Positions 7,353 through 11,855 of a stretch of DNA of 64,000 bases are shown here, in pieces. The stretch comes from Cetorhinus maximus. Lineage: Eukaryota. A program made the position numbers and the translations under genes. The stretch is taken from the NCBI RefSeq assembly GCF_964194155.1, contig NC_135914.1, forward strand, positions 7,006,001 to 7,070,000, given 5' to 3'. Each line of letters opens with the position of its first letter. The first letter of the stretch is position 1. The notes under the pieces were generated by a model. The model worked only from the letters and a program-made list of their open reading frames with translations. It searched no databases and was not told where the DNA came from.

Positions 7353-10297
7353 TGGTTTTGCCAGCAGGAGAGGTGGAGCCTCTTAAATCACATAACCAGT
7401 GTATGATCAGGCCCTGTAAAACTCCCCTCGGGTTAGGGATGGGCAAGTCACTTCCCATTACCAGGCAGTGCGGAGCGGAATCAAAACTGAAACTGGGGCC
7501 TAGTTGAAGGGACTGTCGAAGGCAGTATCTGCAGCTAACTCTGCTTGAAATCAAGTAGGATTCTTGTGGCAAAAACTGTGCCATTTAGTCTTTGTGACTG
7601 ATCAATATAAAGATAAGTAACTGTTAGTAAGAGATCTGCCTGTATGTGACTTGTTTTTATGTAGAGTGAACTGTGGGATTCCAGAAGTGAATGCCCTTTC
7701 CTAGGGATCAAGTTAGTTTGAAATCTTGGTGTCCTGTGCCAAAACAATTGGCTAAATTTTAGACTCCCAATGCCAATTCACACGTGCCCCAAAGTTTCAG
7801 ATAGAGATTCATCTGACTTTCATTGACTAGGAAGCTTCAAGCCAGTTCATTTCCAGCAACGCCGTGACAGGGAGACTCGAGGCTGAAACTGCTGCTCCAA
7901 ACTACAGACCCTGTCAGGGCTTCCCCCTCTGCTTAAAGGTGGTGCTGTTCCAGGAGTGTGTTTAACCACAGGTACTTTATGGTGAAGCTTGTTCATTTGT
8001 GCTGTGACTTAAAATTCTAAGCATTTCATTCAGCTGGTTCCCTTCTGCGGAGCAGTTTATCCCAGCTTTGTTTTGCTAAATATCTGATGATCTAATTATC
8101 TGCGCTTGCTCACTGGTGTGTGTTGTTGGTACCAATACACAAGCTGTTTTTATACCGTTGTGTTGGTGTTGGCTCTTGGCATGCAGTCTTTGCGCAGCCA
8201 GTGATAGTAAAGTAAATATGCCAGGAACAGGAGGCTGGAAGGTCTATTTTTTACCAGGTCTTCTGTCTGTTGGCCTTAGAGAATTGCATAGAAAATACAA
8301 TGCAACAGACCATTTGGCCCAACTGATCTATGCTGGTGTTAATACTCCACATGAGCCGGCTTCCACCCCATTTTATCTCATTCAATCTGTACATCTTTCT
8401 ATTCTTTTCTCCCTCACGTGCTTCCTCTTAAATACATCTCTACTGTTACCTCAGCTGTGAATTTCACATTAGGGATGGGCAATAAATGCTGGCCTAGCCA
8501 GCGACCCCCACATCCTGTAAATGAATTTTAAAAATTCTCCCCACTCTCTGGGGAAAGGAGTTCCTTCTGAATTCCCTATTGGATCTATTAGTGACTGTCT
8601 TACATGTAAAGCCCTCAGTTTTGGCCTCACCTCACCACCTCGCTTTTCCTCCCACCTCTCCCCCCAGGTAGTGTCCAGTGACTGTACTAGCTGACTGTAC
8701 AAGGCTCACACAGATGGCATCAGTATGACATTGCAGCAATATACAAGTAGGTTCAGCATAGATCCACAGCAATGTGAGTGATTCTTAACTGCCCTCTGAA
8801 AAGGCTGAGCAAGCCATTCAGTTATTAAGAGGGTGGTTCATCACCACCACCACCTTCTCAAGGGCAATTAATGATGGGCAGTAAATTCTGGACTTGCCTT
8901 TGCCCGCATCCTATGGATGAATTTTTCTTTTAAATGTGTAATGGAATAACAAACAGCCTGTGGAGTGGCTGGTTCCAAAATATTTGACCCAGGGAATATT
9001 GGAGAGGAGTTAACAAAATTATTTTTATATTTAAAAATAAAATTTAATTACAGAATAAGTTTCCTTTCCAAGTTCTTAATGCCTTGCAGTCTCCCCTTGA
9101 TTTCTGTAAGCCAAGTCCAGTTCCATCAGAATTAGTGTTTGTGATGTGATGGAACTGAGGTGCATGTTCTTGTCCAGCTGAAACTTGACCCCACTTCTTA
9201 CCCCATCACCACTTCCAGGTTACCTGACCTGAAGGAATGTGGATCTTGGCAGAGATCGTGTTGTCTTCATTGCTTTCCATAGTGCTGTTTCTAGAATTTT
9301 AATTGTTTTGTTCTCTGGAGGGATATGGAGATCAGTAATTGAAGCAGTAGGTTTCAATACATTTTCTTAATTAAAATATAATTGTTCAGCAGACAACTTG
9401 CAGGAATCCTCATTCTCCACAATCTCCCAGCCCTAAGTTACTCTCCTTTTCCTGCCTCTGCCTCTTCCCTAACAGAATGTAATGCTCACTACCATGTTGA
9501 TTGGTTGATGGCTCAGCACAGATACACTTCGGGAGAACCTGAATACCTGCACGGGGGCGAAAGTAATAGGAGGATATGTTGATGGAGTGAGATGCAGGAG
9601 GAGATTGATGTGGAATGTAAACCCTTAGCATAGGCCTCTTGGGCGGAATGGCTGTAAAATTGTGTGTGTGTGTAATAGGGTTGTGAGCATGCTAAAAAAA
9701 AATACTAGCAGTTTTCACCGAATCTTTGCCTTGTGCAAATTAATCAGAGATCAGCACATCAGGGAGGCACTTAACAGCTTATACCGGCAATTTCATACAT
9801 AGAATTATATAGAAAGCAAGCTACCTGGTCCAACCAGTCCATGTTGTTTATTCCCCTCATGAAATATTTGTACAATGTGCTGTGAATGGCTAAGTTCAGT
9901 ACTGCTGATACCACCACATTAAGACAATAAACCCTGGGGTTCAGTAGCACCCTGGGCCTGAATTGCATTGAGAGCTATGGATGGATGCAGCACAAAACAT
10001 AGACACACCCTCTCACTGCAAAAATGTGTGATTGCACTTGTACTTAGCCCAAATGGCTGTTCTGCCTGACCATCCCAGCTCGTGAATGTTGACAGGTATC
10101 ATAACCCATCCTGTCATCACTCCAAAGCCCTCACGCTAATTTTCCAGCAAGAGTCACTGGGTGGCCTTCAGGATAGGGAACCCTAGCTTATTTTATGCTG
10201 TAGATCTATTCTGTGTCCGTAATGTTGATTTTCTTTTTTTTTTAAAGGTGTATTCAAGTGATTCGATCAATTGAACCAAGATTCTGGTTCCATCTGC

Positions 10298-10354
10298 ATG
10301 CCCTTTTGTGTGTTGACAAAGGCAAACCCCACTGCTCTTATTAAAGAGCTATGA
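10298..10354 (+). other. 18-codon uORF ([18 protein letters not shown]) whose TGA overlaps the ADAR start codon (ATGA)
   Basis: ATG 10298-10300 is open to TGA 10352-10354, downstream of the exon 2 acceptor. Translation is unproven. Confidence 0.6.
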
Positions 10355-11855
10355 GCAGAGGTGGTGGCGGTGATAAAAGAGCACGTAGAGGTAAAGGAAA
10401 AAGTCGTCTTCAGTATTACCAGCCCCACGATCAGTACAACTACACTTATCCAGCTTATCCCTTCAATCAAGGAACGGGAGCTGATAATTTTCGAAGCCAG
10501 CAGATCCGGTTTCTCACCGGGCAGACCGCTCAGGCACCTGCCTTTGTGCTTCAGCTGCTAAACAGGAACCAGGCATCATACCAGCAGAGGCAACGAGATT
10601 TCTGCCCAGTGGCCAAGAACTGGCATAGCAACTGCTGCCAGCAGCCAGTTAGATCCCCCCGACCCCTGGCTACCCCTGCCCAGAAAGGGAACAAGAACCT
10701 CAAGGTTAACAAGGAGTTAGATCAGCTGTTCTCAAACTTTCGGAACATTTCACTAGGTGGAAACCATCGACAGGAAATTGTGTCCATTTTGGGAAAGCTT
10801 AGACCAGGGGAAAGGCTACCGGCACGTAAAATAGCCAAGCAGCTCTGTGTTGAGAAAAAAATAGTCAACCATGCCTTATATGGTCTGCTGCAAGAAAACC
10901 GGGTGAGAAGGGAAGGCACTTCACCTCCCCTGTGGTGCCTTGCAGACCAAACCAAAGCCAGAAAGGAAGTTACAAACCCTGAAAGCCAACGATCATCGCC
11001 TGAGGGCACAGCTTTACCTCTCCCATCCAAGGTAGAGGAGCAGGAGTCCGAAGACGAAGACAGCTCTGAAGGTAGCATGGCCGACCAATCCAATATTGGA
11101 GATGGCGAAAGCCAAAAAAACAAAATCTTTTCCTTCCTTTTGGAGAAGGAGAAGGCCACTGCTCTTGAGATTGCCAAAAATATTGGGCTGAAGTCAGCCC
11201 GGCAAATCAACCCCACCCTTCACTTATTTGAAAATCAAGGTGATCTCTACAAAGAATCCGCGTTTCCGCCTATTTGGACCCTTTCAGACCGAAAGAAGGA
11301 AGTGCTACTGAGGAAGAGGAAGGTACATGAATTGGGTGAGCCCAGAATTGGAACTGTGGAGGTAATGCCAATGGCAGTTCCAGGTGAAAGTGATGTTTCT
11401 CAAGAAGGCGTTGAAGGGATCACAGTCAGGGAAGAGGGGAGCATTGGGAATGGCCAGGCAGTTGCCCTTCAAGGGGAAACAAATGATTTGCAGCCCCTGT
11501 CCACTTCTGCTCTATTGCTACTTGATGTTAAAGGGGAGAGCAATAGAGCCAATCATGCTGAAGCAAACTACTACGACAGCACCACAGGAAATGGCCAGTG
11601 GGCATCTGATGATATCCCTGATGACCTGAACATCATTAATCGTGTGAGCGAGGCTGGGGAGACAGTTGGTTTGCCGCAGGGCGTGTTAGCCGGCAAGCCC
11701 GGTTCCGATCAACACCCGGCGCTTTCACCGACAGACCGGCTTCGTGCCTGCTTAACGAAGAACCCAGTCAGCGGCCTCATGGAATATTCACAGGGCTCAG
11801 CATTGCAATGTGAATTCATTCTCCTCGCCCAGACAGGGCCATCCCACGACCCTCG
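10351..11855 (+). CDS. ADAR: ADAR exon 2 coding part (RG-rich N-terminus, NES-like motif, Zalpha, Zbeta, first half of dsRBD1); exon acceptor at 10247/10248
   Basis: Acceptor ttttcttttttttttaaag|G; in-frame TAA at 10342-10344 before ATG 10351. Motifs KKIVNHALY...SPPLW (Zalpha), IAKNIG...INPTLH...PPIW (Zbeta), [10 protein letters not shown]...GPSHDPR. Donor CG|gtaag. Confidence 0.95.

Follow-up and report, generated by a model that had tools for sequence, protein, structure and literature searches.

A window of 64,000 nucleotides (nt) from the basking shark Cetorhinus maximus (contig NC_135914.1, positions 7,006,001 to 7,070,000, forward strand; positions below are counted from the first letter of this window, and features lie on the plus strand unless stated otherwise) holds the gene for ADAR1. 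The split of this RNA-editing enzyme into a long, antiviral, Zalpha-bearing form (p150) and a short, Zalpha-less form (p110) is central to its prevention of autoimmunity against self double-stranded RNA (dsRNA), and is taught as a switch of promoters and first exons. In this shark, it is likely the ribosome, and not the promoter alone, that picks the form. Two alternative first exons are spliced to one exon, which carries both the p150-type start codon (AUG1) and a predicted p110-type start (M243). We favour, at a probability of about 0.58, a reading in which a single type of mRNA holds both starts, p150 being initiated at AUG1 and p110 at M243 through leaky scanning or reinitiation, with the two leaders possibly biasing the ratio. 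The arrangement is real, and likely ancestral rather than an oddity of sharks.

Two start codons in one exon

The anatomy of the gene can be read directly. Zalpha and Zbeta, three dsRNA-binding domains (dsRBDs) and a C-terminal deaminase are all present; Pfam finds z-alpha twice, dsrm three times and A_deamin at residues 840-1169 of the protein, and the shark Z-domains match the human Zalpha and Zbeta chains. A coding model of 14 spliced exons (10351-42103) yields 1180 amino acids (aa), or 938 aa counted from M243, the lengths that the initial annotation of this DNA had given. This model is identical to the RefSeq protein of the basking shark (P0355), and the white shark protein (P0001) is the same at 1153 of 1181 positions. 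Exon 2 (10248..11855), delimited from the sequence, the contigs of relatives and the splice model, consists of a 103-nt leader, AUG1, Zalpha (10768..10944, residues ~140-198), M243, Zbeta (11107..11292, residues 253-314, the second Pfam z-alpha match) and the start of dsRBD1. The other 13 coding exons, with the dsRBDs and the deaminase, lie at 13941..42103.

AUG1 (10351..10353) opens the p150-type frame with the residues MSRG in the context gctATGa. Ahead of it stands a TAA (10342..10344), the sole in-frame stop of the exon-2 leader. The next in-frame methionine is M243 (11077..11079), located before Zbeta and in the strong context agcATGg. The sole ATGs between the two starts, at 10871 and 10880, are both in frame +1 and run to a common stop at 10904 (10871..10906). 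Coordinates, frames and contexts agree with the initial annotation, whose inventory of ATGs was right in what it listed but overlooked an upstream ATG at 10298. This ATG, in weak context, opens an 18-codon upstream open reading frame (uORF) in frame +1 (10298..10354), the TGA of which overlaps AUG1. The contigs of relatives list no difference at the TAA, AUG1, M243 or the AUG of the distal first exon. ATGs are scarce from M1 to M243, with 2 in 723 nt against 58 in the 2811 nt of the rest of the coding sequence (P=0.00014). The sequence following AUG1 forms no strong hairpin (61 nt fold at -10.1 kcal/mol, a value without a shuffle control), and a search of Rfam gave 0 matches.

First exons, promoters and leaders

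The transcript evidence consists of contigs from two relatives (organisms A and B, ~97% alike) placed on this genome. Contigs of this kind lose rare variants, carry no expression levels or conditions and cannot fix start sites; that they represent RNA is the guess of the tool, but their spliced joints imply RNA. Both joints to exon 2 are observed directly in these relatives. The main acceptor (10230..10247, cut at 10247|10248), common to both first exons, is used in seven runs (3 of 4 in one set and 4 of 4 in another). Contigs X1 and X2 join 7971 to 10248 over a GT..AG intron (joint 7969-10246, cut +2), and X3 shows the same proximal first exon as a loose end. This non-coding, exon-1A-like exon (7361..7971) contains six upstream ATGs (uATGs), and all of their uORFs close within it. 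Contigs X6, X9 and X12 carry another 5′ piece, of 90-115 letters, at the main acceptor. It is not found within the window sequence and maps in the wider genome, with 0 mismatches, to G000:C37:6984301, where it marks a distal, 1B-like first exon. This exon is CpG-rich, has a GTAAGA donor, and is separated by a 31,921-nt intron from exon 2, its last base being G000:C37:6984326.

Ahead of the proximal exon are an element of the interferon-stimulated response element (ISRE) or interferon regulatory factor type (7316..7332), made of tandem GAAA repeats ending in GAAACT and marking a predicted interferon-inducible promoter, and a TATA box (TATAAAA, 7346..7352). Contig 5′ ends fall at 7361 and 7373, 10-20 nt past the TATAAAA. 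The element, labelled by the ISRE consensus, is one of two matches to GAAANNGAAACT in 64 kb, where 0.22 are expected, and the sole tandem GAAA.GAAA on the plus strand in bases 1-12000. In 30 kb of upstream sequence, GAAANNGAAACT is not found on the plus strand; one reverse-strand match (C37:6983510) lies in a region that resembles a retroelement by eye. We infer that the proximal promoter is interferon-inducible, as judged from the motif, and the distal one constitutive. The second perfect GAAANNGAAACT match of the window is at 3454-3465, 3.9 kb upstream of the proximal exon, and low-depth contigs of the relatives cover 3124-3592 and 4110-7286. A tandem array of ~37-nt units (L001 2470-2900) follows the distal first exon at a distance of ~1 kb.

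As the initial annotation had concluded, no first exon using the main acceptor can give an in-frame p150 start: the exon-1 uORFs close, and the TAA at 10342 stands in the way. With neither first exon contributing an in-frame start through this acceptor, the two-promoter layout therefore cannot choose isoforms by donating AUG1. The further claim that isoform choice cannot work as in mammals was overstated. The two-promoter layout itself is present, with an ISRE- and TATA-bearing exon and a distal CpG-rich exon, and leaky scanning from the p150 AUG1 to the p110 start, yielding p110 from p150 mRNA, has already been reported in human and mouse (PMC12925331, PMC10573302).

The two leaders bring different uORFs to AUG1. 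Counted from 7361, the proximal leader is 714 nt long and contains seven upstream ATGs, none of whose frames runs open past AUG1; the sole one in strong context, at 7439 (gggATGg), opens a uORF of 22 codons that ends ~570 nt before AUG1. The distal leader, of 195-220 nt, has ATG 10298 and, 13 nt before the donor, an AUG (gcgATGc; L001 1514-1526 = G000:C37:6984314-6984326) heading an 8-codon uORF. When the loose ends X6, X9 and X12 are spliced in silico, the 3′ end of this uORF occupies 10248..10261, with a TGA (10259-10261) 89 nt before AUG1. The distal-exon uORF is kept in both relatives. A Lacerta model (P0128) opens with the same four residues as this uORF, a single case and a hint; in passerine models four to five residues come before the part encoded by exon 2, and placental p150 has about five at its beginning. 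The presence of an AUG close to the donor of a first exon may be an old feature.

Selection on the predicted pre-Zbeta start

The depletion of ATGs that the initial annotation had noted recurs in other fishes and across jawed vertebrates, as a nearly Met-free stretch and as avoidance of dipeptides able to form AUGs. Selection on a p110-type start is borne out by Met counts, by this dipeptide depletion and by the turnover of Met residues in sharks. The conservation pattern is seen directly in a set of 237 jawed-vertebrate proteins; counts from the start to the pre-Zbeta Met use the 160 that have a recognisable start, the 77 partial or differently modelled ones being omitted. A Met lies at most 20 residues before Zbeta in 235 of the 237, and in 206 of these 235 the next codon begins with G. 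From the start to this Met, the 160 proteins contain three Met in 47,931 residues, none of them within the first 95 codons, against 728 in the 24,000 residues just after Zbeta. This amounts to a Met rate of 0.006%, against 3.0% in the linker that follows Zbeta and is just as variable.

Dipeptides able to form an out-of-frame AUG (Y, H, N or D followed by V, A, D, E or G) were counted in 17 hand-picked species. Before the pre-Zbeta Met they occur at 0.47 of expectation and are lower in all 17 species, with values of 0.46, 0.55 and 0.50 before, within and after Zalpha. The same dipeptides stand at 0.92 and 1.10 further downstream, and in reversed order at 0.89. A second class (any residue followed by C or W) is weakly low (0.83, in 12 of 17 species).

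In chondrichthyans the position of the start appears to move. The initial annotation had looked to conservation of M243; this residue proves lineage-specific, occurring in six of 18 chondrichthyan proteins, while a pre-Zbeta Met as such is found in all 18, as an older Met, M243 or both. The older Met, 27 residues before the KNIG motif and six residues after M243, is present in 16 of the 18. Two lamniform proteins have the M243-type Met only, the older one having been replaced; its site, that of the ancestral chondrichthyan pre-Zbeta Met, is Ile249 in this shark (11095..11097). Read from sequence, the pattern of Met residues and AUGs points to ribosomes that scan through the part coding for Zalpha and initiate ahead of Zbeta.

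A proposed translational mechanism and its alternatives

Under the favoured reading, both first exons would be spliced to the one exon that carries AUG1 and M243. Ribosomes initiating at AUG1 would make Zalpha-bearing p150, and those leaking past it or reinitiating beyond it would cross an AUG-poor runway of 726 nt to M243 and make Zalpha-less p110. In reinitiation, a short gap between a uORF and the next AUG leads to bypass of that AUG. With the distal leader, whose 8-codon uORF ends only 89 nt ahead of AUG1, bypass would be expected and p110 favoured; with the proximal leader, whose strong uORF ends ~570 nt ahead, p150 would be favoured. That p110 is made, and that the leaders tune the ratio, we infer from these features.

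Several points weigh against this reading. The case for a shark p110 is built on sequence and on the contigs of relatives. In mice without exons 1B and 1C, production of p110 from p150 mRNA was described as 'extremely inefficient' (PMC8118328). AUG depletion is equal in mammals (8 against 18.2), as expected for a p110 mRNA, and because of this equality the depletion shows scanning and not passage past AUG1. Given the protein, synonymous codon choice adds no further avoidance of out-of-frame AUGs (P=0.46, P=0.65), so the scarcity of ATGs sits in the amino-acid sequence itself. The species are related and their counts are non-independent trials, in a pattern that spans sequences only ~30% identical, and crocodilians form an exception with an internal Met at 137. 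Neither ATG 10298 (ATT in organism A, kept in organism B) nor ATG 10871 (missing from both relatives) is conserved. Finally, AUG1-less transcripts figure among the RefSeq models of amphibians and crocodilians, an indication of splicing in these animals.

The same kind of transcript is the basis of an alternative that we consider unlikely but substantial, namely that shark p110 comes from AUG1-less mRNA, which would arise by splicing to an acceptor within exon 2 (10471|10472 or 11031|11032) or from a promoter inside that exon. Use of the first candidate acceptor (10450..10471), which falls at a conserved Gln-Gly, would leave AUG1 out of the mRNA and bring the distal AUG into frame, with 466 open codons to the end of the exon; a distal exon joined at 10472 would even yield a mammal-style p150 starting in exon 1. 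Gln-Gly stands at this spot in 15 of 18 chondrichthyans, in the RefSeq models X2 of crocodilians and X3 of Pleurodeles a coding exon from further upstream is joined at precisely this point, four amphibians (Rhinatrema, Pleurodeles, Ambystoma and Lissotriton) have p110-only models, and a human promoter has been named Pc2 (PMC12925331). However, neither a joint nor a loose end is seen at 10472 or 11032 in any of four runs (in contigs, which lose rare forms), and none of the 19 full or N-terminal members of four shark and ray protein clusters has another start. Both candidates have AAG and a tract with few T (6 of 19, compared with 15 of 19 at the main acceptor), the codons that such a splice would skip are also Met-free, and agreement of frame is a 1-in-3 chance. 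The initial annotation had regarded a different acceptor as the finding that would count against it; none is used in the four runs of shark relatives, although the candidate at 10471|10472 would give an in-frame upstream start.

It is distinctly improbable that sharks make the long protein only, the pre-Zbeta Met and the AUG-poor stretch being a protein-level constraint or relics. Disordered N-terminal regions can be compositionally biased, M243 is not positionally conserved, and direct detection of p110 outside mammals was not found in the literature surveyed. Against this, the Met rate is 0.006% compared with 3.0% in a linker of similar variability, the dipeptide depletion is order-specific, the lamniforms swapped one pre-Zbeta Met for another, and editing is unchanged in a zebrafish frameshift mutant (PMC9489775). 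That an additional, unseen first exon brings an acceptor of its own and supplies an upstream in-frame start as in mammals is very improbable indeed. Lizard, bird and frog models do have in-frame upstream extensions, and a GAG acceptor at 10348|10349 would bring the distal AUG in frame, but GAG acceptors are rare, the TAA at 10342 rules out such a start through the main acceptor, AUG1 would remain in the mRNA, and no such model occurs among the 19 shark and ray members.

Comparison with known systems

In the human gene, exon 1A is the proximal and exon 1B the distal first exon. ADAR1 of human and mouse, transcribed from the promoters PiA, PcB and PcC, has AUG1 in exon 1A and M296 or M249, respectively, in exon 2; the human inducible promoter PiA carries an ISRE (PMC12925331). 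Of the two mammalian proteins, the long one is cytoplasmic and the short one nuclear. The shark has the same gene with the same domain order, alternative first exons joined to a common exon 2, an ISRE-bearing proximal first exon (the ISRE here being predicted) and a CpG-rich distal one. It likewise has an in-frame Met between Zalpha and Zbeta, none before it apart from the start, and an AUG-poor Zalpha region. In contrast, the shark AUG1 lies inside exon 2 behind an in-frame stop and not in exon 1A; therefore both promoters yield mRNA with both starts. Whereas mammalian exons 1B and 1C are without AUG and most p110 comes from AUG1-less mRNA, in the shark a short uORF begins at an AUG of the distal exon, and the mRNA from that exon retains AUG1. 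The shark proximal first exon, of ~600 nt with six uATGs, also differs from the mammalian arrangement. Translational choice is not new in kind, because leaky scanning is known from human and mouse p150 mRNA; what sets the shark apart is that dropping exon 1A offers no way around it.

C/EBPalpha and C/EBPbeta, the products of intronless genes, have long and short isoforms (p42/p30 and LAP/LIP) that are set by a uORF. The shark gene resembles them in having one mRNA, two in-frame starts and an out-of-frame uORF just before the first, which could divert ribosomes to the second. Unlike the conserved C/EBP uORF by the first start, the uORF that overlaps the shark AUG1 has been lost from organism A, and the other shark uORF ends 89 nt upstream of AUG1 and is included or not according to the promoter used.

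Teleost ADAR1 (zebrafish adar; ADAR1 and ADAR1-like of grass carp and grouper) has the MSRG start in the same context and the pre-Zbeta Met. Exons 1A and 1B are reported second-hand for grass carp in PMC12666519, where the fish isoforms described differ at the C-terminus. The MSRG start itself is already in the RefSeq annotation. No statement of a non-mammalian exon-2 AUG1, a shark ISRE promoter or a fish p110 was found in the literature surveyed, to which the grass carp 2015 and Sun 2021 papers and supplements did not belong; the available excerpts of PMC11942513, PMC7886975, PMC4670233 and PMC13219423 contain nothing on non-mammalian start sites.

Origin of the exon-2 start

The suggestion of the initial annotation that this could be the ancestral state is strengthened by the distribution of the start across jawed vertebrates and by single open reading frames (ORFs) in chicken and alligator. 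A start of the form M-S/N-x-G is found in sharks and rays, bichirs, teleosts, coelacanth, lungfish, turtles, crocodilians, birds and lizards, and, as MKRG, in a caecilian. MSRG opens all 19 full or N-terminal members of the four shark and ray clusters, each protein being represented by several RefSeq accessions; the clusters have 27 members, the remaining eight being internal fragments. Nine chicken ORFs of 473 aa, on contigs of 7-17 kb, and a single alligator ORF of 534 aa run from the old start through the end of exon 2. A position of the old start within exon 2, read directly in this shark, is thereby strongly implied in chicken and alligator. Of 34 models with an upstream extension, 33 have an Ala just before the AUG1 Met, and the imperfect AUG1 context is therefore conserved.

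By parsimony over the distribution of starts, the exon-2 start was likely the original arrangement of jawed vertebrates, from which that of placentals is derived. In a mammal-seeded search, which returned placental-type N-termini, the old start occurs in 0 of the 120 matches listed of 144, and marsupial or monotreme N-termini are likewise absent from these 120. Three salamanders are also without the old start. Placental mammals, and salamanders separately, likely moved the p150 start into the first exon, and the salamander arrangement is possibly an independent origin of the mammalian one. In the salamander models (P0393-P0396, P0417-P0420, P0120) the old start is gone and RefSeq p110-only isoforms are present. 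Gecko and lacertid models (P0138, P0156, P0180, P0423) have in common a conserved in-frame N-terminal piece of 12 residues ahead of the exon-2 leader, and lizards may have a mammal-like upstream start in addition to the MSRG start.

Implications for zebrafish and other knockouts

A zebrafish adar mutant offers a possible case of the p110-type start at work. With a 5-bp deletion at codon 39, in the second exon, adar mRNA is unchanged at 3 days post-fertilization (dpf) and the editing pattern at 7 dpf, interferon genes are up, and larvae die at 2-3 weeks; a morpholino against AUG1 causes early patterning defects (PMC9489775). In zebrafish Adar the first Met after M1 is M409, so these findings would also be expected if p110 were retained; they resemble those for the p150-only frameshift L196Cfs in mouse (PMC10573302). 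By analogy, the codon-39 frameshift may be a p150-specific allele. Speaking against this are the explanation of the authors, who invoke maternal supply (PMC9489775), and the possibility that adarb1 accounts for the unchanged editing. The 15 nt around the shark AUG1 are identical to the morpholino target.

If p110 is made from M409 in zebrafish, it would explain an MDA5-type response with unchanged mRNA and editing as well as the mismatch with the morphants, and knockouts of non-mammalian ADAR1 would have to be placed downstream of the second start. If the promoters are older than the first-exon AUG, the switch would have begun as translational control, with leaky scanning on human p150 mRNA as a relic. 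A wider scenario can be offered only tentatively. In ancestral jawed vertebrates, inducible and constitutive promoters would have set the ratio of p150 to p110 by swapping uORF-bearing leaders and not by donating a start. Mammals, and separately salamanders, would later have captured a first-exon AUG and lost the MSRG start, while fish, sharks, birds and reptiles would make a hidden p110. The zebrafish adar 'null' would then be a p150-only allele, explaining intact editing and the morphant mismatch.

Other features of the window

Downstream of ADAR1 and tail to tail with it, a big exon on the minus strand (51698-52861) encodes a subunit of a neurotransmitter-gated ion channel (Neur_chan_LBD and Neur_chan_memb). 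Human ADAR has CHRNB2 as its neighbour, which suggests conserved synteny.

Fragments of LINE-type elements with reverse-transcriptase domains (RVT_1) lie in ADAR1 introns at 880-2025 and 14228-15055. GC-rich intronic tandem arrays at 18728-19427, with units of 25 and 32 nt, CG/GC alternation and a ratio of observed to expected CpG above 1, are possibly Z-forming sequence. Dispersed tandem arrays of 69-nt and 33-nt units occur at 54750-56578, 46578-46921, 37673-37875 and 61873-64000.

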